A stretch of DNA of 64,000 bases. Source: Thermodesulfobacteriota bacterium. Its GTDB lineage: Bacteria > Desulfobacterota > Desulfobacteria > Desulfobacterales > C00003060. Location: contig JAXHVD010000014.1 in the NCBI GenBank assembly GCA_034189385.1, positions 60,050-124,049 on the forward strand. Direction: 5' to 3'. Numbering within the stretch: position 1 is the stretch's first letter; each line of letters opens with the position of its first letter. Under the pieces are notes generated by a model. The model worked only from the letters and a program-made list of their open reading frames with translations, did no database searches and was not told the DNA's origin. The translations under genes were made by a program, and so were the position numbers. This document shows, piece after piece, positions 31,104-53,359 of the stretch.

Positions 31104-32969
31104 ATGCCGAACCAAAGCATGCCTGATGTCTCAAAGTATGGCTCTATTCATGATTTTTTAAAGGCCCAAGCCCAGCGAGCACCTAATGCTCTTGCCATTC
31201 TGGCTCCTGGGCGGAATCCCCTTACGTACAGCGAATTGTGCATTCAAACTGAAGGTACGGTGGAAATGCTAAATGCAATGGGGGTTGGCCGTAATGACCG
31301 CGTAGCCATTGTTCTTCCTAACGGCCCCGAGTTAGCCGCTGCCTTTCTGGCAGTGGCCTCTGGGGGAACCAGCGCCCCGCTGAATCCCGCCTATGGCGCT
31401 AAGGAATTTGATTTCTATCTTGGCGATTTAGATGCCAAGGCATTGGTTATTCAATCTGGCATGGACTCGCCAGCGATCAGCGTGGCACGAACACGCGGGA
31501 CCCCCATCATCGAACTGTCACCTGTGGTTGAGGCAGGGGCAGGGAGTTTCACGCTCGTGGGCGCTGAACGATCGGCAGCGGCCAATGGCGGCATTGCACA
31601 GCTGGAGGATGTGGCTCTGGTGCTGCACACCTCAGGCACGACATCGCGACCCAAGGTCGTCCCCCTGACCCAGAGGAATCTTTGCACCTCGGCCCACAAC
31701 ATTCGGAGCGCTTTTGAGTTGGGTGATAGCGATCGCTGTCTCAATGTGATGCCCCTATTTCACATTCATGGCCTCGTGGGAGCCATCCTTTCGACGCTGG
31801 CGGCTGGCGGGAACGTCGTTTGCACTCCAGGCTTTGACGGGTCCGAATTCTTCAACTGGGTGGCAGGGTTTCACCCAACTTGGTACACGGCAGTGCCTAC
31901 CATGCACCAGGCGATCCTGAACGGTGCTTCATCCCATCACAACGTCATCGCCCGTTATCCGCTGCGATTCATACGTTCCTGTTCTGCCCCTTTGCCGCCA
32001 AAGACAATGGCAGCGTTGGAAGGCCTGTTCAATGCCCCTGTGCTTGAGTCGTACGGGATGACCGAGGCTGCCCACCAAATGACCAGCAATCCCTTGCCTC
32101 CCCGTAAGCGTAAACCTGGTTCCATAGGGATACCCACCGGACAAGAGGTGGCCATCATGAATGAAACAGGCGACCTTCTAAAGACAGGCGAGACCGGTGA
32201 GATCGTGATCCGAGGTGCGAACGTCACACAGGGCTATGAAAACAATCCGGAAGCCAACAAAAGCGCTTTTTGCAACGGTTGGTTCAGAACCGGGGATGAA
32301 GGCTTTTTTGACGAAGACGGCTACTTGTTCTTGACAGGCCGTATCAAGGAAATGATCAATCGTGGCGGCGAAAAAGTAGCGCCGAGAGAAATTGATGAGG
32401 CGGTCATGGAGCATCCTGCTGTGGAACAAGCTGTGACCTTTGCCGTCGCCCATGCCACCCTTTGGGAAGATGTTGCCACAGCCGTGGTGTTGGGAGCAAA
32501 GGCTTCGGCAACGGAGAAGGAGATCCGTGAGTGGGCCTTTGCACGACTGGCTGATTACAAAGTGCCAAGCCAGGTGGTCATAGTAGATGAGGTGCCGAAA
32601 GGCCCTACCGGGAAGCTTCAACGCATCGGTTTGGCAGAGAAGTTCATGTCAAAGCTCAAGTCACCATTCGTGGCACCCAGGAATCCGGCGGAGAAGGCCG
32701 TGGCCAGGATCTGGGCCGCGGTCCTGGATATGGAGCAGGTAGGGATTTACGACAACTTCTTCGGACTGGGTGGAGACTCGCTCCTTGCCACCCAGGTGGT
32801 TTCTCGGTTGCGGGCAGCTTTTCGTGTGGAGCTGCCCTTGCCAACGATGTTTAGGGGGCCCACTGTGGCCGACCAGGCGTCATTGATTGAAGAGCTGCTC
32901 ATGAGTGAGGTGGAAGGGCTGACAGAAGAGGAAGCGCGACAGTTTCTTGAGCAGCGACACGGCTTTTGA
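31104..32969 (+). CDS. Oxalate-CoA-ligase-like (AAE3/PCS60-type) adenylation domain fused to a PCP; NRPS loading module
   Basis: LHTSGTTSRPK, PLFHIHGL, FIRSCSAPL, YGMTEAAHQMTSNPLPP, PKGPTGKLQR; C-terminal DNFFGLGGDSLLA carrier. Confidence 0.85.
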   Translation: MPNQSMPDVSKYGSIHDFLKAQAQRAPNALAILAPGRNPLTYSELCIQTEGTVEMLNAMGVGRNDRVAIVLPNGPELAAAFLAVASGGTSAPLNPAYGAKEFDFYLGDLDAKALVIQSGMDSPAISVARTRGTPIIELSPVVEAGAGSFTLVGAERSAAANGGIAQLEDVALVLHTSGTTSRPKVVPLTQRNLCTSAHNIRSAFELGDSDRCLNVMPLFHIHGLVGAILSTLAAGGNVVCTPGFDGSEFFNWVAGFHPTWYTAVPTMHQAILNGASSHHNVIARYPLRFIRSCSAPLPPKTMAALEGLFNAPVLESYGMTEAAHQMTSNPLPPRKRKPGSIGIPTGQEVAIMNETGDLLKTGETGEIVIRGANVTQGYENNPEANKSAFCNGWFRTGDEGFFDEDGYLFLTGRIKEMINRGGEKVAPREIDEAVMEHPAVEQAVTFAVAHATLWEDVATAVVLGAKASATEKEIREWAFARLADYKVPSQVVIVDEVPKGPTGKLQRIGLAEKFMSKLKSPFVAPRNPAEKAVARIWAAVLDMEQVGIYDNFFGLGGDSLLATQVVSRLRAAFRVELPLPTMFRGPTVADQASLIEELLMSEVEGLTEEEARQFLEQRHGF

Positions 32970-32981: not shown

Positions 32982-35900
32982 GTGACTCAAAAAGAGGACA
33001 TGGGGCAACGGCGGTCCAGGCTCTCACCGGCCAAGGGAGCGCTGCTTGAGAAACGGCTGCAACAGGCGCTGACGGCCGATTTTGAATCGAAAGTAATCCC
33101 TAAGCGTCCAGAGCCAGAAGACGTACCTCTGTCTTTCGCTCAGGAACGCTTTTGGTTCCTTCATCAGCTGGAGCCTGGCAACCCTGCTTACAACCGTCCT
33201 TTTGCCCTTCGTCTCACGGGCCCGCTCAACGTGACCGCCTTGGAGCAGACCCTTAGTGAAATCTTGCGCCGGCACGAGACACTGCGGGCAACTTTCTCCT
33301 CCATGGACGGACGACCGGTCCAGGCCATTTCCCCCGCCCGACCCGTGACTCTTGCGGTGACAGATCTGAGCAGGCAACCTGATCCGGAACGAGAAGCGCA
33401 GGCCAGGCAGTTGGCGGCTGTGGAAGCCCAGCGATCCTTTGATCTGGTCCAAGGGCCTTTGGTTCGGGCCACCTTGCTACGTCTAGACAACGAGGAGCAC
33501 CTGCTACTGCTGGTGATACACCATATTGCCTTTGATGGCTGGTCCGCCAAAGTGCTCATCCGTGAGCTCACGGCGATCTATGAAGCTTTTTCCAAGGGGA
33601 GCCCGTCGCCGCTGGCTGAACTGCCTATCCAGTGCGCAGATTTTGCACTCTGGCAGCGACAGTGGCTGCAGGGTGATGTCTTCAAGATACAGCTCTCCTA
33701 TTGGCAAGACCAACTGGCAGGTTCCCCACCCTCACTGGATCTCCCCGCGGATTACCCACGGCCGGCGACACAGACGCATCGGGGGAGACGTGAAGCCGTG
33801 ACGTTGCCTGTCTCTTTGTTGAGATCACTAAAAACCCTAAGCCAGCAGGAGGGCGTCACCCTGTTCATGGTATTGCTGGCAGCCTTCCAGGTCCTGCTGC
33901 ATCGGTATACGGGAAAGGATGACATCGTCGTGGGCTGTCCTATTTCAGGCCGCACCCACGTGGAGACAGAAAAAGTGATCGGGTTTTTGGTCAATACCTT
34001 GGTCCTTCGGACTGACCTGTCTGGCAACCCGACTTTTCGGGAACTATTGAGTCGGGTCCGTGAGGTGGCAATGGGCGCCTACGCCCACCAGGATCTGCCC
34101 TTCGAGAAACTCATAGAGGAGTTGAAATTGGACCGGGACCTCAGCAGAACACCGTTATTTCAGGTCATGTTCAACTTGGAGAATGTTCCTGGAGAGGTAG
34201 TGCTAACACAAGACCTGACCTTAGATGAATTCGAATTTGACAGTCGCGTCTCACAGTTCGATTTGACCTTGGAAGTAGTGGAGAAGACCGACGGGCTGTC
34301 CTGTTTGTGGGTGTACAACAGCGACTTATTTGATGAGACCACTGTTAAGCGAATGTCAGGACATTTTAGGACTTTGTTAGAAGGCATTGTGGCCAATCCA
34401 GGACAGCGCATCGGATTGTTGCCACTTCTAACGGAATCTGAACGACATCAGTTTCTGGTGGAGTGGAATGACAATCGAGTCCACTATCCCGAGGATCAGT
34501 GCGTCCATCAGCTTTTTGAGTCTCAGGCGAAACGAACGCCCGACGCCGTTGCGGCGGTCTTTAAGGACCAGCAGATGACTTACGACGAGCTGAACCGTCG
34601 GGCAAATTGCCTGGCACACTACCTGCGCAAGCTTGGGGTGGGGCCGGACATCTTGGTAGGAGTTTGTGTGGAGCGCTCCTTGGAGATGGTAGTGGGGCTG
34701 CTGGGCGTTCTCAAGGCCGGGGGTGCTTATGTCCCTCTGGATCCGGCCTATCCTGAAAAGCGCTTGGCCTTCATGGTGGAAGAGACAGAGGCGCCGGCGT
34801 TATTGAGCCAAAAGCACCTGGCAAAAAGGTTTAGCGATACCGGGGTAAAAGTCGTGTGTCTGGACAGAGATTGGGATGTAATCTCCCGAGAACCAGAAGA
34901 GAATCCTCTTTCTGAAACAGGGCCCCGCAATTTACTCTATCTGATTTACACTTCGGGTTCCACGGGAAAACCGAAAGGGGTGGAAATCGAACATAGGGGG
35001 GTAGTCAGTCTTATCTCGTGGCAGCAACGAACATTCTCTGTGTCTGAGGCAGACCGAGCGACCCAGCTTGGAGCACTTTCTTTTGATATGACCGTCATGG
35101 AGCTGTGGCCTTATCTGACTGCGGGAGCAACCGTGCATTTCCCGCCGGATAACGAAACGCGCACGTCGCCCTTGCAACTCCGTGATTGGTTGGTCTCAGA
35201 GGCAATTACCATCAGCGACCTGGTGACCCCATTGGCGGAATGGGTTCTGCCGCTGAGCTGGCCCAAAGGTTCCGCACTTCGGACCCTTGTGACTGGGGGC
35301 GACAAACTCAGTTCTTATCCTTCAGACGACTTGCCTTTTGAGTTTGTGAACACCTACGGCCCTGCAGAGTACACGGTACTCACGACATGGGCTACTATTG
35401 AACCAAATCAGCGAGCCCACTCAGCGCCACCTATCGGCCGACCCATCGATAATACGCAGGTGTACCTGCTCGACAAATACTTACAGCCTGTTCCCATCGG
35501 CGTACCTGGTGAGCTGTACGTTGGCGGTGTGGGCCTGGCCCGAGGCTATCTCAAGCGCCCGGAGCTGACGGCCGAGAAGTTCATACCCCATCCATTCAGC
35601 CATGCCCCCGGTGCGCGTCTTTACAAAACTGGCGACCTGGCCCGTTATTTGCCCGATGGGGCCATTGAGTTCCTCGGCAGGATGGACAGCCAGGTCAAGA
35701 TTCGTGGCTGCCGTGTGGAACTGGGAGAGATTGAGACAATACTAGGGCAACATCCAGCTGTGAACAAAGCCGTGGTCTTGGCCACAGAGAGGGGAAGCAA
35801 ACACGGCCGCCTTCCGATTTCACCGGCAACAGACAAGATCCTGGCAGCCTATGTGGTACTGCACAAGGGCCACTCTGTGTCCACTAGTGGACTGCGCCGG

Positions 35901-36398
35901 TTTCTGAAAGAGAGACTGCCGGAGTATATGGCCCCTTCAGCGTTTGTGGAACTGGAAGCCTTTCCCCTGACGCCTAACGGCAAGGTAGACCGAAGTTCCC
36001 TTCCCTGTCCAGACGCAACGCGACCTGACTTGGATGGGGCTTTCATCGCCCCCCGCACTGCCGTGGAGGAATTGGTGGCAGGGGTGTGGACAGAAGTGCT
36101 CAGGTTGGACCAGGTGGGGGTTCATGACAGCTTTTTTCAGTTGGGAGGCCACTCGTTGCTGGCCGTCCAGGTCATTTCTCGGCTCCGGAAGGCGTTTCAA
36201 ACAGATGTCCCTTTGCGTTGCCTCTTTGAGGCCCCCACTGTAGCAGAGCTCTCCCGGGCCATCTTGGCGAATGAACCCGTGCCCGGACAGGCTGAAAAGA
36301 TCGCCCGGATCATGAGTAAGGTAAAGCGTATGTCCCCGGACGAAGTCAAGAGGACTCTTGAGGAGAAGAAAGGGCAGCGAACCGGGGAGAGGCCATGA
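32982..36398 (+). CDS. Single-module NRPS 1 (C-A-PCP)
   Basis: [48 protein letters not shown]. Confidence 0.95.
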
Positions 36399-36468: not shown

Positions 36469-36693
36469 ATGCACAGGGACGACAGGGAGGACACCACCGT
36501 CTACAAGGTTGTCGTAAATCACGAAGAACAGTATTCCATATGGCCTGTAAACCGCGAAACCCCTCGCGGCTGGCATGAAGTGGGAAAAAGCGGGCCGAAG
36601 GCAGAATGTCTCGCATTCATCAAAGAAGTCTGGACTGACATGACACCCCTTAGCCTGAGGAAAAAGATGAAGCAGGAAGGGAAGTCCCAGTAA
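36469..36693 (+). CDS. mbtH: MbtH-like protein
   Basis: [42 protein letters not shown] before the ATG at 36469. Confidence 0.95.
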
Positions 36694-36729: not shown

Positions 36730-39700
36730 ATGTCTGTGGAGAAAACCATACAAGAAAGGATTGATGAGTTTGTTGCCGAATCACGTGCGCTAAATGGGCA
36801 AGAGGTAAGAGAAAGGATGCCCTGGAACACCTCTGTAACGGCTGATGCCATCAGGCACTTTGCCTATGGTATCAGCGACGATAACCCCCTGTGGCTGGAC
36901 CGGCACTACGCATCCAAGACCTGCTATGGCCGCCTGGTCGCGCCGCCGGCTTTCCTCAGCTCCGTCCTGTACCCAATCCTACATGGGGCCCCAATGGATG
37001 TGCCTTTATCCAGCTTTATCGAGGGAATAGAATATCAATGGTTTTTGCCTGTTCTGGAAGGAGATTCGTTACGGGCATCGGCCAGGCAGATTGACGTCTT
37101 AGAATCGAAGGCCGCCAATGGCCGCCCCGTTGTCTATATTGTATCTGAGACCGGCTATTGGAACCAACAGGGTGAGCTGGTTGCAAAGGCAAGGGGAACA
37201 ATGGCCCGAGTTTTACGGGATGGGAAAGAACTCTCGGTTCAGCCTCCAATACATCAGTATAACCAGGAAGAGATACAAAGCATTGGCAAGGCCCTTGCAC
37301 GAGAGGGCAGGACCGGGGGCCGCAATCTGTTCGGTGAGGATGTTGAGGTCGGCCAGGAACTACCAGCGCTGGTGCGGGGCCCCCTAACCATCGGGGATAT
37401 GATCTGTTGGCAGGCTGCCGTTGGTCCCTCCTATCGGGCCGGATCTCTGGGTTATCGGGACATCGTGAAGGCACCCCACACGGCCGTTACAAATCCTATT
37501 ACCGGTTGGCCGGTTAGGTTTTCTCAACAGCATGAGGACTTTCAACTGGTGTCACAGCGCGGAATGTCCGCTCCCTTTGATAATGGTGTGATGCGTTTTT
37601 CCTGGTTGTCTCCTTTAGTAACAAACTGGATGGGTGATAATGGATTGCTGAAACGACTGGCTGTTCGGATAATAGCACCAAACCTATACGGGGATACTAC
37701 TTGGTATCAAGGAATAGTAACAAAGAAAAATGATACAAAGTCCGGTACTTCACTAACAGTCAAGATAACGGGAATCAACCAGGTGGGCATCACCACAACC
37801 CGAGGGGAGGCAGAAGTATTACTCCCATTGTGCAGGGCAAACAAGCGTGGCCATTCCCCACAAGAAATGAGCGAAAGGGATGATATCCTACAAGGCGATC
37901 CCGGGCAAAACTGCCTGCATGAGATGTTCGAGATTCAGGCCGAGCGGACACCCGATGCTGACGCAGTCTCCTTTGAAGACCAGCGGCTGAACTATCGCGA
38001 ATTGAACCAACTGAGTAACCGGCTGGCACACTATCTACGTTCTTCGGGTGTAGGTCCCGATGTGCCTGTGGGGATATATATGGAACGCTCCATCGATATC
38101 GTACTAGGAATACTGGCCACTCTGAAGGCAGGGGGGGCTTACGTGCCCTTAGATCCCGAATATCCAAAGGAACGATTGTCCTTTATGGCCGAAGATGCTG
38201 GGATTTCGGTACTTTTAACCCAAGAGCGGCTGCTCCATAGGCTACCCAACCAGGAGGCACGGGTAATCTGCTTAGACACAGGACGGAACACATACAGGCA
38301 TATGAGCGGAGAAACCCCCGTTACAAGTGTGAGGGACAATAATCTCGCCTATGTGATCTATACTTCCGGTTCTACTGGCCAACCAAGAGGCGTGGCCGTA
38401 TCCCATTCCAGTTTATCATTGTACATCAATTCCATCAGCAAGGCCTTAGGGGTAACTGATAAGGATGTATATTTACACACCGCATCTTTTTCTTTTTCCG
38501 CTGCCGTGCGACAGATGGTCTTACCCCTTTGTTTGGGTTCCACCCTGGTCGTTGCAAACTCCGAGGAAAGAAGAGATCCTCTCGCCCTATTTGAACTAGT
38601 CAAAAAGCGTAGTGTAACCGTATGGGATACTGTACCAAGCCTGTGGCGTCATTGCATTGATGCGCTGATGACTCTTGACCACGACGTCAGGGCAAACCTT
38701 CTCAGAAACAGGTTGCGCCTCATCCTGGTGACCGGTGAGCCACTAACCTGGGATATCCCTCGGACGTGGATGTCTCGATTGCATCATGGTGCGCACATCA
38801 TGAACCTGTATGGCCAAACAGAATCTACTGGGACTGTTAGTTATTATCCCATTCCCAAGGAGTTTGATGACAAATCGCGGGTAGTACCATTGGGAAGGCC
38901 AGTTGAAAGGACGCAGATCTACTTATTAGACGAAGACCTGCGCCAGGTTCCCAATGGGGTGGAAGGCGAAATCTGTGTCGGAGGCGGACGCTTGGCTAAA
39001 GGATACCTGCATGGAGACGGATTGATGACCGATCGATTCATCCCCGACCCGTTTAGTGGAAAGCCCGGTGCACGTCTTTATAAAACCCTCGACTTGGGGC
39101 GATATTTACCCGACGGCAATCTCGAGTTCATGGGTCGTCTGGATCAGCGAATCAAGATCCGCGGGTTCCGTATCGAACCGACGGAGATTGAAGAAACACT
39201 GAGAAAACACCCGGACGTACGCGACGCCGCCGTGTTAGCACGAGAGGACCTTCCAGGTGACAAAAGATTGATTGCCTACATAGTGCCTAATCAAGCCGGC
39301 ACGATAATGATTGAGGGTAACAGGCCATATAGGTTTTCAAATAACATGGCCGTGATGCAATTAAACAAACATGAGACCGACTACACCTATGGGGCAATAT
39401 TCGAGCGTCTCACCTATATGAGACATGGGATTACGATTCATGATGGTGATTGCATATTTGACGTGGGGGCAAACATAGGTCTCTTTTCGCTCTTTGTCCA
39501 TCAGTGGTGCAAAAAGCCAAGGATCTTCGCCTTTGAGCCCAATCCCGTCGTATTCGAGCTATTAAAGGCAAATGCGTCTTTGTATGGCCTGGACGTACGA
39601 TTGTTCCAATGTGGATTGTCTGATCAATCCAAGCGCGCACCCTTTACCTTTTTCCCTGGTTCTTCCATACAATCCGGCTTATATGCTGATGGGGAGAGCG

Positions 39701-40659
39701 AAAAGGCAGTGGTCAAAGCACTCATGACAAATCAGCAGAAAGCGGGAATCTCCGGTATGGACGAGACGATAGAACAGGCTGATGACATATTGAACAAGCG
39801 TTTTTCGCCTGAAACGTTTACTGTCCCCTTAAGAACCCTTTCGAGCGTGATAAAAGAGGAACATGTCCCGTGTATTCATCTTTTGAAGATTAATGTTGAA
39901 AAGAGTGAACTCGATGTTCTCGCGGGTATCGAGGATGATGACTGGAAGAAGATTGATCAGATGGTCCTAAAGGTGGACATTGAGGAACATCTGGACAGAG
40001 TTGTCTCGCTACTAAAAAATCAAGGTTATGATGTCACAGTAGATCAGGACAATCTTCTCGAGAATACCCCCATTCGCTCCGTATATGCCTTGCGACCATC
40101 AAAGAAACGAATTATCAAAAAGGAAGCCAAAGAGCAAACACAGACATCACAGTCACCTCCTTTGAGCATTCCAGTGATTTCAACCGGCGAACTGAAAACC
40201 TTTTTACGCAAGACGCTACCCGATTATATGATACCGTCTAGTTTCGTTTTACTGCAAGAGATACCGCGAGCACCAAGCGGCAAGGTTGATAGATCGGCAC
40301 TTCCCGCACCGGGAAAAGGGGGGCCAAAGCTGAAAGGGGCGTTTGAAGCACCTCTCAGCTCTGTGGAGAAGACCCTGGCCAACATCTGGGAGGAGGTGCT
40401 CCGTATAGAACGAGTAGGCCTGTACGATGATTTTTTTGAGTTAGGCGGCCATTCTCTTTCAGCCACTCAAGTCATCTCCAGATTGCGCGATACCTTTCAG
40501 ATAGAGTTATCTGTGGCCGATCTTTTTGAGGTCCCCACTGTGGCAAATCTGGCCGCAGAAATTACGCGGAAGTTGATTGAGAAGACGGGACATGAAGAAC
40601 TCCTGCCAAACACGATTCGGAGAAGATCTCCACAAAAAAACGGACTCACAAGTCGCTGA
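36730..40659 (+). CDS. NRPS-like protein: double hotdog (MaoC/FAS1-like) dehydratase, A domain interrupted by an FkbM-type methyltransferase, PCP
   Basis: DAIRHFAYGISDDNPLW..APPAF and second hotdog HED..DNG..RF..W; A core YTSGSTGQPRG; IFDVGANIGLF..FEPNP..LLKINVEKSE between A8 and A9; LGGHSL; no C domain. Confidence 0.88.
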   Translation: MSVEKTIQERIDEFVAESRALNGQEVRERMPWNTSVTADAIRHFAYGISDDNPLWLDRHYASKTCYGRLVAPPAFLSSVLYPILHGAPMDVPLSSFIEGIEYQWFLPVLEGDSLRASARQIDVLESKAANGRPVVYIVSETGYWNQQGELVAKARGTMARVLRDGKELSVQPPIHQYNQEEIQSIGKALAREGRTGGRNLFGEDVEVGQELPALVRGPLTIGDMICWQAAVGPSYRAGSLGYRDIVKAPHTAVTNPITGWPVRFSQQHEDFQLVSQRGMSAPFDNGVMRFSWLSPLVTNWMGDNGLLKRLAVRIIAPNLYGDTTWYQGIVTKKNDTKSGTSLTVKITGINQVGITTTRGEAEVLLPLCRANKRGHSPQEMSERDDILQGDPGQNCLHEMFEIQAERTPDADAVSFEDQRLNYRELNQLSNRLAHYLRSSGVGPDVPVGIYMERSIDIVLGILATLKAGGAYVPLDPEYPKERLSFMAEDAGISVLLTQERLLHRLPNQEARVICLDTGRNTYRHMSGETPVTSVRDNNLAYVIYTSGSTGQPRGVAVSHSSLSLYINSISKALGVTDKDVYLHTASFSFSAAVRQMVLPLCLGSTLVVANSEERRDPLALFELVKKRSVTVWDTVPSLWRHCIDALMTLDHDVRANLLRNRLRLILVTGEPLTWDIPRTWMSRLHHGAHIMNLYGQTESTGTVSYYPIPKEFDDKSRVVPLGRPVERTQIYLLDEDLRQVPNGVEGEICVGGGRLAKGYLHGDGLMTDRFIPDPFSGKPGARLYKTLDLGRYLPDGNLEFMGRLDQRIKIRGFRIEPTEIEETLRKHPDVRDAAVLAREDLPGDKRLIAYIVPNQAGTIMIEGNRPYRFSNNMAVMQLNKHETDYTYGAIFERLTYMRHGITIHDGDCIFDVGANIGLFSLFVHQWCKKPRIFAFEPNPVVFELLKANASLYGLDVRLFQCGLSDQSKRAPFTFFPGSSIQSGLYADGESEKAVVKALMTNQQKAGISGMDETIEQADDILNKRFSPETFTVPLRTLSSVIKEEHVPCIHLLKINVEKSELDVLAGIEDDDWKKIDQMVLKVDIEEHLDRVVSLLKNQGYDVTVDQDNLLENTPIRSVYALRPSKKRIIKKEAKEQTQTSQSPPLSIPVISTGELKTFLRKTLPDYMIPSSFVLLQEIPRAPSGKVDRSALPAPGKGGPKLKGAFEAPLSSVEKTLANIWEEVLRIERVGLYDDFFELGGHSLSATQVISRLRDTFQIELSVADLFEVPTVANLAAEITRKLIEKTGHEELLPNTIRRRSPQKNGLTSR

Positions 40660-40693: not shown

Positions 40694-41593
40694 ATGGGTA
40701 AGAGTATGGACATTCGTGTGGTCGCCGTTGTTGGCGCTGGTGTAATAGGACGGGGCGTGTCCCAAAACCTTGCCCAGACCGGCCATCAGGTGATGCTCCT
40801 CGATGTTGTGCCGGAAATACTCGAAGAGGCTAGAAGGGACATCAAAGAAAACATGAGATTGCAGCAGTTCTTCACCCAAGCCGACAAGGGGGAAAACCCG
40901 GATGAGGTGTTGGGACGCATAAGGTTTTCTGCCGATCATCACCTTCTGTCGGATGTGGATTTCGTGATCGAGAACGTCACCGAGAAGTGGGAGATCAAAA
41001 AAGAGATATACGGGCATCTTGAGGCCCGGTGCCCCGAGGAATGCGTCTTTGCAGCGAACACCTCCGCCATACCCATTACCCGCATCGCCTCGGCCACAAA
41101 GAGACCGGCGAAAGTCATCGGAATGCATTTCATGAATCCCGTCCCTTTGAAGCCAACAGTTGAAGTGATTCGCGGGGTTCACACATCCGATGAGACCCTT
41201 GAAACGGCAAAGGTCCTGCTCGCCCAGATGGGCAAAGGCTGCATTGTGGTCAATGATTCGCCCGGCTTTGTTTCCAACCGTGTACTCATGTTGGCAATCA
41301 ACGAAGCTGTGTACGCATTGCAGGAGAAAGTAGCCTCTGCTGAGGACGTAGACAGAATATTCAAAACCTGTTTTGGTCACAAAATGGGCCCCCTGGAAAC
41401 AGCCGATCTGATCGGACTCGATACGGTCCTCTATACCCTGGAGGTCCTTCATGAAAGCTTTAAGGACAGCAAATACAGGGCCTGTCCATTACTCAAGAAG
41501 ATGGTGGATGGGGGTTTCCATGGCAGGAAAAGCGGGCAAGGATTCTACGATTATTCTGTCCATAACACAGACCCTGCGAGCGAAGAAGAGTGA
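40694..41593 (+). CDS. 3-hydroxyacyl-CoA dehydrogenase-like, FkbK/ZmaG-type acyl-ACP dehydrogenase
   Basis: GAGVIG Rossmann motif, ANTSAIPIT, GMHFMNP, PGFVSNR; adjacent to ACP, ACAD and FkbH genes. Confidence 0.88.
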   Translation: MGKSMDIRVVAVVGAGVIGRGVSQNLAQTGHQVMLLDVVPEILEEARRDIKENMRLQQFFTQADKGENPDEVLGRIRFSADHHLLSDVDFVIENVTEKWEIKKEIYGHLEARCPEECVFAANTSAIPITRIASATKRPAKVIGMHFMNPVPLKPTVEVIRGVHTSDETLETAKVLLAQMGKGCIVVNDSPGFVSNRVLMLAINEAVYALQEKVASAEDVDRIFKTCFGHKMGPLETADLIGLDTVLYTLEVLHESFKDSKYRACPLLKKMVDGGFHGRKSGQGFYDYSVHNTDPASEEE

Positions 41594-41600
41594 TATCGCT

Positions 41601-41864
41601 ATGAAGGAGAACAGAGAGAAAATCAGGGCGTTTTTGGCCAGATACATTTCAACCCACGATTTACGAGATGATGATGACATCTTTGCAAGCGGTTTTGTCA
41701 ATTCACTGTTTGCCATGCAATTGGTCTTGTTTGTAGAAGGGGAGTTTCATCTCCGAATCGAAAACGAGGATCTGAAGATTAAGAACTTCAGATCGATCAA
41801 TGCTCTTAGCCGTTTGATAGAACGGAAAGTGTTGCAGTTAAACAGTGCGCACTTCCCGGGTTGA
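41601..41864 (+). CDS. Stand-alone ACP of the FkbJ/ZmaD type
   Basis: DIFASGFVNSLFAMQLVLFVE..F motif typical of hydroxy/methoxy/aminomalonyl-ACP carriers. Confidence 0.88.
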   Translation: MKENREKIRAFLARYISTHDLRDDDDIFASGFVNSLFAMQLVLFVEGEFHLRIENEDLKIKNFRSINALSRLIERKVLQLNSAHFPG

Positions 41865-41903: not shown

Positions 41904-43046
41904 ATGAAAATGGAGCTGAATGCAGAGCAGAAGAAAGATCAGGCGGCCTTCCGGGCTGTTGTGAGTAAAGAGATTGTTCCCCATGCCGATGAATACGATC
42001 GGCAGGAGCGCGTCCCCTTTGATCTCATCAAAAGACTGGGCCGCGAGGGATATCTGGGCGCGACTTTGCCCACGGAATACGGCGGCCGTGCCATGGACAT
42101 GATCACCTATGGCCTTCTCAACGAAGAGCTTGGACGAGGCTGCTCTTCGGTGCGCGCCTTGGTCATGCTCCAAAATATGATCGGCCAGACAATCCTTAGA
42201 TGGGGGAACAGGGATCAAAAGGGGTTCTGGCTCAACAAGCTGGCATCAGGTGAGGCGCTGGCTTCCTTCGCCCTGACCGAACCGGATGTAGGTAGCGACG
42301 CCAGCAATGTCCAGACTGCGGCGAGACCGGCGGGGGACAACTATATCATCAATGGACGGAAGAAGTGGATCACCCTGGGACAGATAGCAGACCTTTTTCT
42401 GGTGCTTGCTCAATGGGAAGGACAGCCCTGTGCCTTTCTGGTGGAGAAAGACACTCCGGGTTTGTCGATAAACCCCCTTTTCGGGATGCTCGGCGCTAGA
42501 GCCTCCTTGCTTGCTGAATTGCATTTTGATGATTGCCCGGTCCCAGCAGAGAATCTGGTCGGTGCCATGGGCTTTGGCCTGGCGCCTGTAGCCTTCTTGG
42601 CCCTCAATATCGGAAGATACAGCGTTGCCTGGGGCTGTGTGGGTATTGCGCAGGCCTGTCTCGAGGCCTGTATAGACCATACGAGCAAGAGAAAACAGTT
42701 CGGGGTCTATCTCAAGGAACACCAATTGATCAAGCACATGATCGCTGACATGGTCGTGAAAGTGAAAGCAGGAAGGCTGCTGTGCATTCGGGCCGGCTCC
42801 TCTATGGAGGCGGGTGATCCGAGCTCTGTCACGGAGACAATGGTGGCCAAGTATTTTGCCTCACAAATGGCCAGTGAGATAGCAAATGATGCGGTGCAAA
42901 TCCACGGCGCCCTGGGGTGTAGTCGTGAACATGGGGTGGAGAGATACTTGCGCGATGCCAAAGTGATGGAAATTATCGAAGGAACGACGCAGATACTTCA
43001 GATGAAAATCGCCGAATACGCCTATCAGGAGCACGGCGACAAGTGA
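41904..43046 (+). CDS. Acyl-CoA dehydrogenase-like, FkbI/ZmaE-type
   Basis: GRGCSSVR, ALTEPDVGSDA, GRYSVAWGCVGIAQAC, RDAKVMEIIEGT. Confidence 0.88.
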   Translation: MKMELNAEQKKDQAAFRAVVSKEIVPHADEYDRQERVPFDLIKRLGREGYLGATLPTEYGGRAMDMITYGLLNEELGRGCSSVRALVMLQNMIGQTILRWGNRDQKGFWLNKLASGEALASFALTEPDVGSDASNVQTAARPAGDNYIINGRKKWITLGQIADLFLVLAQWEGQPCAFLVEKDTPGLSINPLFGMLGARASLLAELHFDDCPVPAENLVGAMGFGLAPVAFLALNIGRYSVAWGCVGIAQACLEACIDHTSKRKQFGVYLKEHQLIKHMIADMVVKVKAGRLLCIRAGSSMEAGDPSSVTETMVAKYFASQMASEIANDAVQIHGALGCSREHGVERYLRDAKVMEIIEGTTQILQMKIAEYAYQEHGDK

Positions 43047-43053: not shown

Positions 43054-44166
43054 GTGAAATGTATCGCCCCCTTGGCAATGACCTCAATGACCATCTCGAC
43101 AAACAGGAAATTGGCTGACAAGGATCATAGAAAGCAATCCGTCAAGTGCGTCGTCTGGGATCTCGATGACACGATATGGAAGGGCGTATTGCTGGAGAAT
43201 GACCACCTTTGCCTGCGGGAAAACGTGATCTCCATCATCAAGGCTCTGGATAACCGCGGTATCCTGCAATCCATTGCCAGCAAGAACGATGGTGCTGCCG
43301 CGATGAAAAAGCTCAGCGAGTACGGTCTGAACGAGTATTTTCTCCATCCCCAGATTGGCTGGAACTCCAAAGCCTCATCCATTCAGCACATTGCTCGGTC
43401 ACTCAACATTGGTACGGATGCAATGGCCTTCATTGATGACCAGCCTTTTGAAAGAGAAGAAGTGAGGTTTTCGCTACCTGAAGTTCTCTGTGTGGATGCA
43501 AAAGACTTGCATAGACTGCTCGATATGCCGGAAATGAACCCTGGCCTTGTTACCGAAGATTCGAAAATGAGAAGGTCGATGTACCTTAGCGACGTGTCAC
43601 GGCTAAGATCTGAACAGGAGTTTGAGGGTTCCAAAGAGGCTTTTCTAGCGTCACTCCGCATGGTCCTCACTATCTTTGCGGCAAGAGAAGAGGATTTGCT
43701 GCGAGCAGAAGAATTGACGGTGCGCACCAATCAACTGAATGCAACAGGCTTCACCTATTCCTATGAGGAGCTGGATCACTTCCGGCAATCGAAAGGGCAC
43801 ATCCTGCTCATGGCAAAGCTGGAAGATAAGTACGGTAGTTATGGAAACATCGGCTTGGCACTCGTCCAATGTGAGGCAAGGGTATGGACCATAAAACTCC
43901 TGTTGGTATCGTGCCGGGTCATGTCCAGAGGAATCGGCTCCATTATCCTTAGCCACATCATGATGATGGCCAGAAACCATAACGTGCGTTTGCGCGCTGA
44001 ATACGTGGAGAATGGTCGAAACCGCATGATGAATATCACCTATCGCTTTGCAGGGTTTTATGAAATTGAGCGGAAGGGCAAGGTCACTCTTTTTGAAAAT
44101 GACCTGACGGCAATTCAACCCTTTCCCGATTATGTAGGAGTGGAAATCCATGACCAATCCGTCTGA
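43054..44166 (+). CDS. FkbH-like glyceryl-ACP phosphatase/transferase (HAD-IIIC)
   Basis: VWDLDDTIW, QSIASKN, FIDDQPFER, RTNQLN, SCRVMSRG. Confidence 0.92.
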   Translation: MKCIAPLAMTSMTISTNRKLADKDHRKQSVKCVVWDLDDTIWKGVLLENDHLCLRENVISIIKALDNRGILQSIASKNDGAAAMKKLSEYGLNEYFLHPQIGWNSKASSIQHIARSLNIGTDAMAFIDDQPFEREEVRFSLPEVLCVDAKDLHRLLDMPEMNPGLVTEDSKMRRSMYLSDVSRLRSEQEFEGSKEAFLASLRMVLTIFAAREEDLLRAEELTVRTNQLNATGFTYSYEELDHFRQSKGHILLMAKLEDKYGSYGNIGLALVQCEARVWTIKLLLVSCRVMSRGIGSIILSHIMMMARNHNVRLRAEYVENGRNRMMNITYRFAGFYEIERKGKVTLFENDLTAIQPFPDYVGVEIHDQSV

Positions 44167-47100
44167 AGGGGTCTCCGACCCATCCTTAAAGAGCGAGGCA
44201 CTGCTTGAGGCGTTGCTCAAGGCCGCCGCCACCGGACGGAGCCGGAAAATCACCCGAAGAAATGTTGCAGGCCCTGCTCCCCTCTCCTTTGCCCAACAAA
44301 GGCTTTGGTTTCTCGATCAAGTGGTTCCCGGCAACCCGGCGTATAACGTGGTGAGGGCCTTTCGCCTCACAGGGCAAATCGACCCGAAAGTTCTGGAAAG
44401 GGTCCTCAGTGAAATCCTGCGGCGCCACGAATCCCTTCGCACGACCTTCACTGCGGTGGAAGGCCGCCCTGTGCAAATGGCTCAGCCGGTGCCCGGCCCC
44501 GGGCACTCCCAACGGCAACCCATGCCTTTATTCTCACGGGTGATCGATTTGAGCCGCTTGCCAGAGCCCGAACGGGGCGACAAGATCCATGACCTTCTGA
44601 CCAAGGAAAGCCGAAGAACTTTCGACCTGACCCAAGGGCCCCTCATGGGGATGACCCTCTTGCGATTGGGCGAGGAAGAACATGTACTCCTCCTTGTGAT
44701 GCACCATATTGTCTCGGACGGCTGGTCTGTCGGCGTTCTCCTCAGAGAATTGGCTGCCCTTTATGAGGCCTTTTCCACAGGTGCGTCCTCACCCCTTCCT
44801 CCGTTGCCCATACAGTATGCAGATTTTGCCCTCTGGCAACGACAGTGGCTGCAGGGAGAGGTCCTGGAAGATCAATTGGCTTACTGGAAGAAGCAACTGG
44901 CAGGGGCTCCCTTCAGGCTGGAACTCCCCGCAGACCGCCCAAGGCCGTCTGTTCAGACATACGGAGGGGCACGGCAGTCTGCCTTTCTATCCAAAGAGTT
45001 GACCGAGGGTCTCAGAGAATTGGGCCAGCGGGAAGGCGTCACCCTGTTTATGACGCTTCTCGCTGCTTTCAAGACGCTTCTCTACCGTTACTCTGGACAG
45101 GAAGACATCACCGTGGGCTCTCCCATTGCAAACCGGAACCGGGTGGAGATCGAATCCTTGATTGGCTTCTTTGTGAATACCCTCGCCCTGCGCACGGACC
45201 TTACAGGGAATCCGAGTTTTCAAGGATTGGTGCATCGCGTGCGAAAAGTAGCCCTGGAAGCCTACGCTCACCAGGATCTCCCCTTTGAGAAGCTGGTAGA
45301 AGAATTGCAGCCGGAAAGAAATCTCAGTCATTCGCCCCTCTTTCAAGTGATGTTTGTACTGCACAATCAGCCCATGCCCACCCTGGAGTTCTCCAATATG
45401 AGGCTCAACCCTATGGAAGTGGATAATGGGACGGCGAAGTTTGATCTGACCCTCTTCGTATTACAACGGAAAGAGGGGCTCCAGTGCACATGGGAGTACA
45501 ATACCCATCTATTCGATCATGCAACCGTTGGCCGGATGCTTGGACATTTTCACACCCTGTTGGAAGGGATTGTGGCCGATCCGGGGCAGCCTATCGGACT
45601 GTTGCCCCTCTTGACAGAGGCGGAAGGGCATCAGTTGCTGGTGGAGTGGAACGATACGCGAGCAGAGTATCCCCAGGATCAATTGGTCCACCACCTCTTT
45701 GAGGCCCAGGCGGAACGAAGGCCTGACGCGGTGGCCATGGTCTTCAGGGAAGAGCAGATGACGTACGGTGAGCTCAATTGCCGGGCGAACCGTCTGGCCC
45801 ACTATCTGCGCAAACTGGGGGTTGGTCCAAAGGTCCTGGTAGGAGTTTGTCTGGAGCGCTCCTTGGAAATGGTGGTGGGATTGCTGGCCGTCCTCAAGGC
45901 AGGGGGGGCGTATGTGCCGCTGGATCCGTCTTACCCCGAAAAGCGCTTGGCCTTCATGCTGGAAGAGACAGAAGCGCCGGTGTTGCTGAGCAAAGCATAC
46001 CTGACGGGAAAGTTTCCCCGTAACGGGGCGAAAGTCGTATGCCTGGACAGAGATTGGGATGTGATTGCCCGGGAACCGGGAGAAGTCCTTTTTGTCGACA
46101 CAGGGCCTTCCAATCTGGCCTATGTGATTTTCACTTCCGGTTCCACCGGCAAGCCGAAAGGGGTCGAAGTCGAACACAGGGGCTTGGTCAATCTTGTCTC
46201 GTGGCTTCAATGGACATTTTCTGTATCGGAAAAGGATCAAACCGCCCATCTGGCCTCTTTGTCCTTCGATGTGTCCGTCATGGAGCTTTGGTCTTACCTG
46301 ACTGCCGGGGCAAGGATTTCTTTGCCGCCGGATGAAGAAAGGCGCACATCACCTTTGGGGCTTCGCGATTGGCTCCTTTCGGAAGAAATCAGCGTCAGTG
46401 TTCTGGTGACCCCGTTGGCAGAGTTGGTTTTACCGCTGAGTTGGCCAGAAACCGCCCCTCTTCGGGTTCTTATGACCGCCGGAGACAAGCTCAGTTCTTA
46501 TCCTTCAAAGACCTTGCCCTTTCAGTTTGTAAATGCCTACGGGCCCACCGAGTATACTGTCCTCACCACGTGGGCCGCCGTGGGGCCGAATCAGGGAAGC
46601 TACTCCCCCCCACCCATCGGCCGGCCCATAGCCAATACCCAGGTTTATCTTCTGGACAAATACCTGCAACCCGTTCCCGTGGGCGTGCCCGGTGAGCTTT
46701 ACGTGGGCGGTGTGGGCCTGGCCCGAGGGTATCTCAAGCGTCCCGAACTAACGGCAGAGAAGTTCATCCCTAACCCCTTCGGCAATGATCCCGGCAGTCG
46801 TCTCTATCGGACCGGAGACCTGGCCCGGTATCTGCCCGATGGGAACATCGAGTTCCTGGGGAGAATGGACAGCCAGGTTAAGATCCGCGGCTTTCGTGTG
46901 GAGCCGGGGGAGATTGAGACCATCCTGGGGCAACACCCGGCAGTGAAAAAGGTCGTGGTGTTGGCAAGACAAAGGGCGCCCAACAGAACCACTCCGGCTG
47001 CAGACAAGCATCTTGTGGCTTATGTGGTACCCCACCGGGACAACTCCCTGGCCATTGATGAACTGCGCCGGTTTCTCAAAGAGAGGCTTCCCGACTACAT

Positions 47101-47551
47101 GGTGCCTTCAGCCTTTGTCCTGCTCCATTCCCTCCCCTTGACGCCTAACGGCAAGGTGGACCGTAGCGCCCTGCCGCTGCCAGAGCCGACCCGGCCTGAC
47201 TTGAATGAGGCCTTCATAGCGCCCCGCACTGCCGTGGAGGAATTGGTGGCAGGGGTGTGGAGCGAAGTGCTCAGGTTGGATCGGGTGGGCGTGCAGGACA
47301 ACTTTTTTGAATTGGGCGGACACTCTTTGCTGGCGGTCCAGGTCCTTTCCAGGCTCCGGAGGGTTTTTCAGGCGGATCTCCCTTTGCGCTGCCTGTTCGA
47401 AGCGCCGACCGTGGCGGAGCTATCGCACGTCATCATGGCCAACGAGCCAATGCCGGGACAGACCGAAAAGATCGCCCGGGCCATGGGCAAGATAAAGAAG
47501 ATGTCCTCTGAGGACATGAGCAAAACGCTTGAGGAAATAAGACGCCAGTGA
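44150..47551 (+). CDS. Single-module NRPS 2 (C-A-PCP), paralog of NRPS 1
   Basis: [42 protein letters not shown]. Confidence 0.95.
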   Translation: MTNPSEGVSDPSLKSEALLEALLKAAATGRSRKITRRNVAGPAPLSFAQQRLWFLDQVVPGNPAYNVVRAFRLTGQIDPKVLERVLSEILRRHESLRTTFTAVEGRPVQMAQPVPGPGHSQRQPMPLFSRVIDLSRLPEPERGDKIHDLLTKESRRTFDLTQGPLMGMTLLRLGEEEHVLLLVMHHIVSDGWSVGVLLRELAALYEAFSTGASSPLPPLPIQYADFALWQRQWLQGEVLEDQLAYWKKQLAGAPFRLELPADRPRPSVQTYGGARQSAFLSKELTEGLRELGQREGVTLFMTLLAAFKTLLYRYSGQEDITVGSPIANRNRVEIESLIGFFVNTLALRTDLTGNPSFQGLVHRVRKVALEAYAHQDLPFEKLVEELQPERNLSHSPLFQVMFVLHNQPMPTLEFSNMRLNPMEVDNGTAKFDLTLFVLQRKEGLQCTWEYNTHLFDHATVGRMLGHFHTLLEGIVADPGQPIGLLPLLTEAEGHQLLVEWNDTRAEYPQDQLVHHLFEAQAERRPDAVAMVFREEQMTYGELNCRANRLAHYLRKLGVGPKVLVGVCLERSLEMVVGLLAVLKAGGAYVPLDPSYPEKRLAFMLEETEAPVLLSKAYLTGKFPRNGAKVVCLDRDWDVIAREPGEVLFVDTGPSNLAYVIFTSGSTGKPKGVEVEHRGLVNLVSWLQWTFSVSEKDQTAHLASLSFDVSVMELWSYLTAGARISLPPDEERRTSPLGLRDWLLSEEISVSVLVTPLAELVLPLSWPETAPLRVLMTAGDKLSSYPSKTLPFQFVNAYGPTEYTVLTTWAAVGPNQGSYSPPPIGRPIANTQVYLLDKYLQPVPVGVPGELYVGGVGLARGYLKRPELTAEKFIPNPFGNDPGSRLYRTGDLARYLPDGNIEFLGRMDSQVKIRGFRVEPGEIETILGQHPAVKKVVVLARQRAPNRTTPAADKHLVAYVVPHRDNSLAIDELRRFLKERLPDYMVPSAFVLLHSLPLTPNGKVDRSALPLPEPTRPDLNEAFIAPRTAVEELVAGVWSEVLRLDRVGVQDNFFELGGHSLLAVQVLSRLRRVFQADLPLRCLFEAPTVAELSHVIMANEPMPGQTEKIARAMGKIKKMSSEDMSKTLEEIRRQ

Positions 47552-51623: not shown

Positions 51624-52389
51624 GCACCTTTCGCGCACTAAAGACTCCTTGTCTTCATGGTCTCCTCCGCCAGCAAGTCCTACGTTAGCCAAAGACGAGG
51701 TTCACCTGTGGCGGGCGTATTTGGACGTAGCTGTGCAACTGCTAGAAAGCCTGAAGCATTGCTTGTCTCGGGACGAACTGACAAGAGCGGAGCGTTTTCA
51801 TTTTGAGAAAGACCGAAATCGTTTCATTGCAGCCCGTGGGGTCCTTAGGAAGATTCTGTCTGCCTATTGCATGACGGAACCGAATCAACTTTCTTTTCAT
51901 CACAACATGCATGGGAAGCCTGCTTTAGACCCGCAATGTGACGGGGGTGGTCTTCGCTTCAATTTATCTCATTCTGATGGGGTCGCTCTCTACGCCATTA
52001 CACGTGGCCGTGAGGTCGGTATCGATATCGAACGCATTCGCACGGATTTGGAGTTTGATCGGATCGCAGAACGTTTTTTTTCGCCCCAAGAGGTTGCCAC
52101 ACTGCTCGCACTCCCACCGCATACTCAGAAACAAGCATTCTTCGCCTGCTGGACCCGGAAAGAGGCTTACGTAAAAGCAAGAGGCGACGGGCTTTCTCTG
52201 CCTCTGGATCAATTTGCCGTATCGGTGGCGCCTGATGACGCAGCGGTGCTGCTGCACACAAAGGGTGATCCTCAGAATCTGTCCCATTGGTCTTTGAAAG
52301 CCTTGGCCCTAGGCCCTGATTATGAGGCGGCGCTTGCCGTGGAGGGAGATTCCGGGCTACTTAGATGCTGGCAATGGGCGGAGGAATAG
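51616..52389 (+). CDS. Sfp-type 4'-phosphopantetheinyl transferase
   Basis: GKP, FNLSHS, VGIDIE, FFACWTRKEAYVKA.G. Confidence 0.95.
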   Translation: MIEHLSRTKDSLSSWSPPPASPTLAKDEVHLWRAYLDVAVQLLESLKHCLSRDELTRAERFHFEKDRNRFIAARGVLRKILSAYCMTEPNQLSFHHNMHGKPALDPQCDGGGLRFNLSHSDGVALYAITRGREVGIDIERIRTDLEFDRIAERFFSPQEVATLLALPPHTQKQAFFACWTRKEAYVKARGDGLSLPLDQFAVSVAPDDAAVLLHTKGDPQNLSHWSLKALALGPDYEAALAVEGDSGLLRCWQWAEE

Positions 52390-52525: not shown

Positions 52526-53359
52526 ATGAAATATCAGAATGTTATCATCAACGTGTGCCTCACGGGAATTGTCCCCACTAAGGACGTGAATCCCTATGTG
52601 CCGATCACGCCTAAAGAGATCGCTCAAGACGCAAGAAAGGTCTACGATCTAGGGGCAAGCATGGTCCACATACATGCAAGAGACAAAAACGGGCAGCCAT
52701 CGAGCAAAAAGGAGATATACAAAGAGATCATTGACAGGATTCGAGATAAATGTGCAGACCTTGTTATCGTCGTTTCCACGAGCGGCCGAAGGACGCGGGA
52801 CATTAAACAACGAATGAATGTTCTGGAGCTCGATGGATACCACAAGCCGGATATGGCAAGCCTCACCTTGGGCTCTATGAACTTTAAACATGATACGGGT
52901 ATCAATTCTCCGGAAACGATCCTTTCACTTCTGACAACCATGAACTCATCAGGTATAAGGCCTGAACTGGAGATATTTGATACTGGAATGGCAAATTATG
53001 CTAAATACCTTTTTGAAAAGGGCCATCTTGAAGGAAGGCACTATTCGAATCTAATCCTTGGATCTTTAGGGACAATGCCTGCTACGCCCAAAAATCTTTC
53101 CCATCTTGTGGAGGAGCTTCATGAGAATCTAATCTGGGCTGCAACGGGTGTTGGGCGGTTTGCATTTTATGTACAATGTCTATCCCTAGCCATGGGGGGA
53201 CATATCAGAGTCGGAATAGAGGATAGTATATTCATGGATGAAGAAAAAAGACAGGTAGCTACCAATGAAAAGCTGGTCTCGCGCATTGTAAGGGTAGCTG
53301 AAGCCATGGGTCGGCGATTGGGCACTCCAAGGGACGTGAGAAAAATGTTACACTTATAA
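52526..53359 (+). CDS. BKACE / DUF849 beta-keto acid cleavage family enzyme
   Basis: VHIHAR metal motif, PDMASL..GSMNF, PELEIFD, HIRVGIED. Confidence 0.9.
   Translation: MKYQNVIINVCLTGIVPTKDVNPYVPITPKEIAQDARKVYDLGASMVHIHARDKNGQPSSKKEIYKEIIDRIRDKCADLVIVVSTSGRRTRDIKQRMNVLELDGYHKPDMASLTLGSMNFKHDTGINSPETILSLLTTMNSSGIRPELEIFDTGMANYAKYLFEKGHLEGRHYSNLILGSLGTMPATPKNLSHLVEELHENLIWAATGVGRFAFYVQCLSLAMGGHIRVGIEDSIFMDEEKRQVATNEKLVSRIVRVAEAMGRRLGTPRDVRKMLHL

Follow-up and report, generated by a model that had tools for sequence, protein, structure and literature searches.

Which acid is activated, and to which acceptor would it be passed, by an adenylation protein that carries its own carrier domain at the head of a nonribosomal peptide synthetase (NRPS) operon? 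The question is raised by a stretch of 64,000 nucleotides from a Thermodesulfobacteriota bacterium of the order Desulfobacterales (assembly GCA_034189385.1, contig JAXHVD010000014.1, positions 60,050 to 124,049), the whole of which is referred to here as the window and supplies all coordinates below; the genes of the operon and the gene adjoining it all lie on its forward strand. One open frame of 621 amino acids (31104..32969), recognized by an open reading frame (ORF) scan, Pfam and structure search, encodes an oxalate-ligase-type adenylation (A) domain followed by a carrier and C-terminal docking helices, and its product is called the ligase–carrier protein in what follows. A preliminary description of this DNA had taken it for a candidate oxalyl starter module, in which oxalate is activated, tethered and passed to the condensation (C) domain of the first synthetase. 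On the basis of the sequence comparisons set out here, we consider it reasonably probable that the protein loads oxalyl and hands it to that synthetase, NRPS1.

The frame has the anatomy that such a module would need. Pfam places AMP-binding at residues 20–378 (E 3e-74), AMP-binding_C at 429–504 and PP-binding at 532–594 (E 1e-12), the last of these (32697..32885) bearing the attachment serine, Ser559, within a GGDSL motif. The motifs quoted in the preliminary description—PLFHIHGL starting at residue 217, FIRSCSAPL at 289, MTEAAHQMTSNPLPP at 319, TGKLQR at 502, GGDSL at 556 and EVEGLTEEEARQFL at 602—were all located in the frame, as were the carrier and the acidic tail. An AlphaFold model built from a 90-sequence alignment has a mean pLDDT of 91.2 and ends in helices 588–604 and 608–619, which together form an acidic two-helix tail (residues 588–619; 32865..32960), a putative C-terminal docking domain; the net charge of the last 30 amino acids is −6. 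Both the carrier serine and the tail are kept across the fused family in the 90-sequence alignment. Contigs from sequencing run X1, possibly the window's own source, span the gene with no differences.

The A domain is a member of the oxalyl-CoA synthetase (AAE3/Pcs60) subfamily. Its best solved relatives by sequence are AtAAE3 (E 2.9e-128), LsOCS (1.7e-125) and Pcs60 (8.8e-114), followed by the multi-module NRPS LgrA (E about 1e-79; 23–25% identity), FadD13 (3.9e-66) and MatB (7.5e-63). When the model is ranked by fold, the AtAAE3 structures 5ie2, 5ie3 and 5ie0 come first (TM 0.93 over the target, rmsd 2.4–2.5 Å), then LsOCS, Pcs60 and MatB, and identity in the structural alignment is 44–45% to 5ie2 and 5ie3 and 29% to the malonyl-CoA synthetase MatB. 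In sequence and fold alike, AAE3 is a far better match than FadD13, MatB, 4CL or benzoate ligases. None of the best 25 of 107 NCBIfam models passes its cut-off, the top one being the FadD7 family fatty acid-CoA ligase (423.5 bits against 650); TIGR01733, the model for amino-acid A domains, is absent from these 25. An FD-type A4 motif with the amino-binding aspartate finds no match in the protein, where PLFHIH occupies the position. By these scores and rankings, the ligase–carrier protein fits neither the amino-acid NRPS A domains nor the fatty acyl-AMP ligases (FAALs) and the fatty-acyl- and aryl-CoA ligases. Sequence, fold and pocket residues uphold the initial assignment to the AAE3/PCS60 oxalate-CoA ligases rather than to amino-acid A domains, and in the fold search, which bears on the structural check proposed there, AtAAE3 and PCS60 are among the top matches, with fatty-acyl and aryl ligases far lower.

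The oxalate pocket of AtAAE3 comprises V215, H216, C288, S289, A313, M314, H319 and K500, and Ser289 and His319 are reported, in the accessible part of the same source, to be conserved only among oxalyl-CoA synthetases (PMC8905533). Mapping by hand on printed alignments gives I221, H222, C293, S294, G318, M319, H324 and K504 as the equivalents in the ligase–carrier protein. Six of the eight are identical, and these include all three direct contacts: Ser294 (31983..31985; AtAAE3 Ser289) and His324 (32073..32075; AtAAE3 His319), which touch oxalate, and the adenylation lysine Lys504 (32613..32615; AtAAE3 Lys500). The residue check suggested at the outset therefore came out with the Ser, His and Lys contacts all kept. 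Isoleucine in place of valine (I221) and glycine in place of alanine (G318) are what bacterial stand-alone enzymes normally have, as in the Methylobacterium loci L076 and L080, where a PanE-like reductase immediately precedes the ligase. The Ser/His/Lys trio is kept in 126 of 130 fused and in all 69 stand-alone relatives; among the metagenome loci, Ser and His are kept in 34 of the 36 that are readable and lost in two (44 of the 80 are unreadable). Four database variants without the oxalate histidine nest inside the fused clade of a tree that was a quick version, lacking plant and yeast sequences and having long outgroup branches, and was used for nesting only. The pocket can therefore change within the family, which makes its retention in the ligase–carrier protein informative. 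Fused members without the histidine, the serine or both (P0062, P0092, P0108 and P0118; loci L087 and L112) are candidates for a different small-acid starter.

The acceptor side of the enzyme differs from that of the stand-alone ligases. At positions 489/490 a basic residue is found in all 69 stand-alone but in 20 of 130 fused proteins, and the ligase–carrier protein has Ser-Gln where AAE3 has KR, LsOCS KK and Pcs60 TK. This strand, which we take by analogy with 4-chlorobenzoate-CoA ligase to bind the CoA phosphates, has lost its basic pair, and that loss would fit a shift of acceptor from CoA to the carrier. Because of the fused carrier and tail and the lost pair, the protein is not filed here as a CoA ligase: its first half-reaction is likely to proceed as in a CoA ligase and its second as in a loader of the type formed by a FAAL and an acyl carrier protein (ACP).

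Gene context appears to separate two uses of these enzymes, catabolic for the stand-alone and biosynthetic for the fused forms. Of 69 stand-alone loci, 55 have a PanE-like reductase gene no more than 10 kb away, as opposed to none of 91 fused loci; PanE is described as an oxalyl-CoA reductase in the accessible part of PMC9485241. Where a fused metagenome locus extends 3 kb or more downstream (43 loci), a same-strand C domain follows in 33 (29 of 39 after merging near-copies); it follows in none of the 60 loci of the stand-alone set. A lyase of the isocitrate lyase/phosphoenolpyruvate mutase family occurs in 12 of 73 distinct fused loci and in none of the 69 stand-alone loci; its best Protein Data Bank (PDB) match is petal death protein, and oxaloacetate acetylhydrolase (E 2.5e-23) stands among methylisocitrate lyases. 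Oah converts oxaloacetate to oxalate, according to the portion of PMC9485241 that was accessible, and the co-occurrence of the lyase, whose reaction is predicted, supports oxalate as the substrate of the fused family. A full-length lyase with at least 42% identity is encoded in six of 15 genomes that have a fusion, and a 50% fragment in one more. Locus L062, with a thioesterase (TE)-like frame just downstream and the lyase upstream, was counted as a split fused gene.

Thiamine-diphosphate enzymes are found in 14 of the 73 distinct fused loci, and those that follow the fusion (L085, L090, L092, L110, L117, L120, L157, L159) have the same N-terminal docking helix as the C-domain NRPSs. Fusions outside NRPS clusters (L088, L098, L102, L118, L129, L135, L160, L051, L062, L218; P0093, P0100, P0106) are accompanied by hexapeptide-repeat domains or by genes for methyltransferases, FemAB-like proteins or glycosyltransferases; glycans or the cell wall may be what receives the oxalyl group there. 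Genes labelled 'OCS' in L109, L021 and L052 were considered as a second oxalate ligase and rejected; they are 26–29% identical to the ligase–carrier protein and lack the oxalate-ligase motifs.

The unit had been called a rare NRPS starter, which holds for the open-access papers searched but not for genomes: at least 120 fused homologues (the window's own protein included), all with PP-binding among the matches listed, and at least 119 metagenome stretches with the fusion-specific pattern (80 of them fetched) are at hand. Among the matches listed, 101 of the 119 other homologues measure at most 700 amino acids, and the rest mostly add a thioesterase or hexapeptide-repeat domain. The fused loci of named origin belong to Chloroflexota, Acidobacteriota, Myxococcota, Gemmatimonadota, Cyanobacteriota, Verrucomicrobiota, Actinomycetota and Nitrospirota, and the genes are currently annotated only as 'acyl-CoA synthetase/ACP'. 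No paper describing a bacterial oxalyl starter module was found among the open-access papers listed, subscription journals and MIBiG lying outside the search. In the host lineage the distribution is sporadic: the gene was found in none of the 60 relatives searched (36 of them in the same genus), and a gene of its type occurs in five of 400 genomes of the order, fused in four of the five.

The partner of the loader is indicated by its downstream neighbours. Genes after tailed fusions, whether C-domain NRPSs or thiamine enzymes, share an N-terminal helix with the consensus LSPxKRALL, and a regular expression for this head matches 24 of 33 such genes (one match being false and one row misread) versus four of the 1538 long ORFs of the genome. 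A profile built from the N-terminal stretches of 23 genes located after fused ligases gives NRPS1 24.7 bits, the hotdog gene of the same operon 1.1, NRPS3 −0.4 and NRPS4 less than −1; among the 1538 long ORFs, NRPS1 is the top match and the runner-up reaches 11.1 bits. NRPS1 starts 12 bp past the ligase–carrier gene, and its head carries a charge of +4, opposite to that of the tail. The proposed hand-off to NRPS1 is thus backed independently by the head profile, transfer of the unit being the predicted step. Visual comparison shows similar tails in NRPS1 and NRPS3 and similar heads in NRPS3 and NRPS4; these likenesses suggest an assembly order from the ligase to NRPS1, NRPS3 and NRPS4, with the hotdog protein acting in trans.

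We propose that the ligase–carrier protein would act as a self-loading starter module. Judging by pocket and fold, its A domain would bind oxalate through Ser294, His324 and Lys504 and convert it with ATP to oxalyl-AMP. After priming of Ser559 by the cluster's phosphopantetheinyl transferase (PPTase), the oxalyl group would go to the pantetheine arm on the fused carrier instead of to CoA. The acidic tail would then dock on the basic head of NRPS1, whose C domain would amidate oxalyl onto the first amino acid. The line most likely runs through NRPS1, NRPS3 and NRPS4, with release of a short N-oxalyl peptide by a Cys-type TE, and a hotdog-A-T protein with an inserted methyltransferase, together with an FkbH/ACP/dehydrogenase cassette, probably adds small acyl or modified units in trans. 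What is generally expected around an A-T starter is present: an intact carrier serine motif, a PPTase in the cluster and a downstream C domain with HHxxxDG.

The operon itself reads as follows. NRPS1 (32982..36398), the candidate oxalyl acceptor, consists of the basic docking head and C, A and thiolation (T) domains with an intact HHxxxDG, as judged by Pfam, motifs and the head profile. It is followed by an MbtH-like protein of 74 amino acids (36469..36693; PF03621, E 3e-22), not so listed by the ORF scan, and by a protein (36730..40659; Pfam, family alignment and model) in which a double-hotdog (MaoC-like) region is joined to an A domain without the amino-binding aspartate, an inserted FkbM methyltransferase and a T domain. 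The FkbH cassette comprises a 3-hydroxyacyl-CoA dehydrogenase-like protein (40694..41593; Pfam), a stand-alone ACP (41601..41864; domain search), an acyl-CoA dehydrogenase-like protein (41904..43046; Pfam) and an FkbH-type glyceryl transferase/phosphatase (43054..44166; TIGR01686, 258.9 bits, cut-off 146.65). NRPS3 (44150..47551; Pfam and alignment) is a C-A-T protein 67% identical to NRPS1, and NRPS4 (47562..51623; Pfam and motifs) a C-A-T-TE protein with a cysteine (GACLG) at the nucleophile position of its TE and the C motif HHIVADE. A Sfp/HetI-type PPTase (51601..52389; Pfam and NCBIfam) closes the series. All of these frames are open and tightly spaced. Read by hand, the A-domain codes are DMMDVGTVLK for NRPS1, DVMVMAAVLK for NRPS3 and DVQFIAQVVK for NRPS4; they follow what we take to be the GrsA numbering, and the NRPS4 code is presumably proline-like. 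Promoter and terminator scans gave no signal exceeding shuffles.

The cluster therefore holds two further acyl-donor systems that lay outside the preliminary description, the hotdog-A-T loader and the FkbH cassette, and with both present the product should exceed an oxalyl-tripeptide in complexity. FkbH units arise on a dedicated ACP without adenylation, and we assume the cassette to be of the hydroxymalonyl-ACP type. Its four genes (40694–44166) stand in a cluster without a ketosynthase or acyltransferase; the three PF00109 matches of the genome are frames of 405–463 amino acids on other contigs. The consumer of the unit may be a C domain or the hotdog protein.

The hotdog loader belongs to a family of at least 120 proteins (P0125–P0244; loci L225 and L229–L231). 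Among the matches listed, 77 have the order hotdog-A-T, 17 add a TE, eight read A-T-TE-hotdog, nine include a methyltransferase, six continue with a C domain and three are arranged otherwise. In all 110 A domains that follow a hotdog region, six pocket positions (S235, A236, R239, D278, T301, L322) and G330 are invariant, in the pattern S-A-R-D-x-T-L-G, and the amino-binding aspartate is absent. Structure matches of the hotdog model (pLDDT 88.8) are to MaoC-like dehydratases, mesaconyl-CoA hydratase and itaconyl-CoA hydratase, at a low 11–16% identity. The operon around a stand-alone relative (52%) also encodes a class III CoA-transferase, TctA/TctC and an enolase-family enzyme. The protein may thus load and dehydrate a small hydroxy-acid or hydroxy-diacid. 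In genome G649, a hotdog-A-T protein lies between a divergent A-type loader and one C-A-T-TE protein without an oxalate ligase, which indicates that the two loaders are independent parts. No hotdog domain was found in the viral contigs searched, and no paper on the loader among the open-access papers listed, none of which contains 'MaoC'.

The gene that adjoins the cluster (52526..53359; Pfam, PDB match, GC content) is probably no part of it. It encodes a β-keto acid cleavage enzyme (BKACE; DUF849) whose GC content, 0.453, is closer to that of the right flank (0.466) than to that of the cluster (0.543). BKACEs are described, in sources accessible in part, as cleaving β-keto acids with acetyl-CoA, and ObcA as related to them. 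The match to ObcA is weak (E 2.9e-6), the protein has 277 amino acids and no N-terminal extension, and hand mapping puts a phenylalanine at the catalytic position of CcaKce Tyr145 and ObcA Tyr322. No BKACE lies within 10 kb in 89 fused loci, a weak negative given that the window's own copy is 19.5 kb away, and in genome G426 a 49% relative and the ligase are on different contigs. A glycosyltransferase gene comes next after the closest kin (45%) in two of three loci examined, and in longer forms the enzyme is joined to a glycosyltransferase or GNAT in one protein. With the phenylalanine, the flank-like GC, the glycosylation-locus kin and no linkage elsewhere, the enzyme is a distinctly unlikely ObcA-like source of oxalate and was rejected as such. 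The subclade with this substitution (52526–53359; L202, L203, P0245, P0246), beside or fused to glycosyltransferases or GNAT, possibly supplies an acyl-CoA for surface glycan decoration. Farther out, a TPR-sulfotransferase (57526–59562) lies 5 kb past the cluster in the lower-GC flank, and a MenC-like enolase with an AMP-binding enzyme (441–3003) likely represents menaquinone genes unrelated to the system.

Several observations weigh against oxalyl loading and its hand-off to NRPS1, and they bear on the substrate, on the supply and on the wiring. Glyoxylate and malonate are further substrates of LsOCS, used with 61-fold and four orders of magnitude lower efficiency, respectively (PMC8905533), and identity of the pocket therefore leaves room for other C2 and C3 acids. 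The contrast at positions 489/490 is confounded with descent, since close relatives dominate the fused set and four of 11 distant fused proteins keep a basic residue, and the PanE zero is softened by short loci: of 79 metagenome loci scored, only 26 reach 1.5 kb in both directions. In the host genome, which is 90% complete, carries dsrA above cut-off and is linked to marine sequencing runs, a PF13714 lyase was not found (the control matched in 11 of 14 genomes), nor was oxc above cut-off, nor any PanE-like, OxlT-like or class III CoA-transferase-like match; oxalate uptake from sediment or an unrecognised route remains. That the same starter logic serves another small acid—glyoxylate, malonate, hydroxymalonate, methoxymalonate or a short diacid, possibly one matched to the FkbH unit—is unlikely. 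It would suit a cluster with an FkbH/ACP/dehydrogenase set and no oxalate-making lyase and a pocket that Gly318 (AtAAE3 Ala313) may widen, and there is precedent in Fum10, which activates a tricarboxylic acid for the NRPS-like Fum14, as seen in the accessible part of PMC7711896. All three oxalate contacts are nevertheless retained, Gly318 and Ile221 are also found in stand-alone enzymes beside PanE-like reductases, MatB ranks well below the oxalate ligases, and units of the FkbH type need no adenylation. Fum10 presumably belongs to the wider subfamily of the ligase–carrier protein. An ordinary catabolic oxalate-CoA, fatty-acyl- or aryl-CoA ligase with an idle carrier appended is highly improbable: the hinge and A8 region (GRIKEMINRGGEK) do look CoA-ligase-like and the best NCBIfam model is a fatty acid-CoA ligase, yet that model falls short of its cut-off, carrier serine and tail are kept family-wide, the fused forms are located in NRPS operons, and the host lacks the matches to PanE-like, oxc and class III CoA-transferase genes.

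As for the wiring, the strict head expression failed on NRPS1, which has a glycine at a usually basic position. A dedicated clade of starter C domains was rejected, as the tree of first-after-ligase C domains shows none (10 changes; 33 of 500 shuffles as low), although the NRPS1 C domain groups with two of them (SH-like 96). Contig 11 of run X2, aligning to window positions 32663–32779 and 36692–36972, links ligase–carrier-like sequence and the hotdog gene over 192 letters, NRPS1 and MbtH being absent; a relative appears to have a ligase–carrier immediately before the hotdog gene, so that other wiring may exist. It is quite unlikely, all the same, that oxalate is loaded but accepted by the C domain of NRPS3 or NRPS4, in a side-chain acylation, or by the hotdog-A-T protein. 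Besides the missing clade and the X2 contig, the three C domains and three possible acyl donors of the operon, and the loader that precedes hotdog-A-T and a single C-A-T-TE in G649, would favour such an acceptor; what speaks for NRPS1 is that it alone has the partner-type head, next to the loader and opposite in charge. Finally, the ligase–carrier protein departs at five positions from residues conserved at 90% or more, among them Trp454 (32463..32465; alignment, second strain and read contigs), where 195 of 199 aligned relatives have glycine. A sequencing error was ruled out, because P0122 (601 of 621 residues identical, 97%) has the same tryptophan and, within the same study, another sample yielded a contig that agrees across the site. 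One might hence see a weakened or silent copy in this lineage, on a horizontally acquired island, with efficiency lowered by Trp454 and oxalate supply missing, as the absence of the lyase and the sporadic occurrence would allow. We regard this as very unlikely: operon frames are open and tight, PPTase and MbtH are present, the catalytic motifs are intact, the second strain keeps the full frame with the same tryptophan, and the other four relatives tolerate Asn, Asp or Ser at 454.

Oxalyl loading by the ligase–carrier protein would combine features of several known systems. AtAAE3 (PDB 5IE0/5IE2/5IE3), LsOCS (6QJZ) and Pcs60 (8AFF) share 40–45% identity with it, and the Ser/His/Lys contacts, P-loop and hinge lysine are kept. 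They are stand-alone enzymes that pass oxalyl to CoA, whereas the ligase–carrier protein has a carrier and tail but no basic pair and is encoded first in an NRPS operon. The Methylobacterium-type stand-alone ligase, which we take to be the enzyme named Oxs, is closer still (about 58% identity; pocket string HIHSSGMHK versus HIHCSGMHK in the ligase–carrier protein) but is paired with PanE in a catabolic rather than a biosynthetic context. Like the FAAL–ACP loaders HapA, NocH and AmbG, the protein fuses an adenylation domain to a carrier for a non-amino-acid starter (PMC11837247), and its model matches the fold of the A–peptidyl carrier protein loader of McyG; those loaders take fatty or aryl acids in contrast to the oxalate-type pocket found here, and the string 'oxal' does not occur in the accessible text of that loader review. 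In the grass-pea route to β-N-oxalyl-α,β-diaminopropionic acid (β-ODAP), LsAAE3/LsOCS and the BAHD acyltransferase BOS likewise amidate activated oxalyl onto an amino acid, as described in the accessible part of PMC8905533, but the plant route is CoA-bound and uses one acyltransferase, while the window's system would be carrier-bound and would use a C domain. In fumonisin biosynthesis an acyl-CoA synthetase-type enzyme, Fum10, feeds a polycarboxylic acid to the NRPS-like condensation protein Fum14 (PMC7711896, accessible in part), differing in being fungal, in using tricarballylate, in forming an ester bond and in employing separate proteins. The three-helix docking domains of PaxB/PaxC in the PAX system, with a two-helix part on the carrier protein and a basic one-helix part on the C domain (PMC9113145, accessible in part), are alike in layout and charge only. 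That an A-T loader feeds a C domain is known logic, here with a predicted oxalate-type starter.

A wider scenario can be offered, tentatively and with more doubt than confidence: bacteria would have recruited an oxalate-detoxifying ligase as a dockable NRPS starter and, in a dsrA-bearing marine anaerobe, joined it with a double-hotdog-A-T loader, whose pocket is not of the amino-acid type and is invariant in at least 110 relatives, and with an FkbH cassette that has no ketosynthase; the resulting peptide, with up to three small acid caps, would be a metal chelator or a 2-oxoglutarate mimic like N-oxalylglycine. In its boldest form, the hotdog domain may replace a condensation domain.

If the assignment of the ligase–carrier protein as an oxalyl loader is true, oxalate becomes a further starter unit for assembly lines in bacteria, and the many genes annotated as 'acyl-CoA synthetase/ACP' will have to be re-read. 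In NRPS engineering, the loader with its docking tail would serve as a transferable part. Metal binding and mimicry of 2-oxoglutarate are known abilities of N-oxalyl amides, and the clusters that would make them therefore point to an unexplored class of products.

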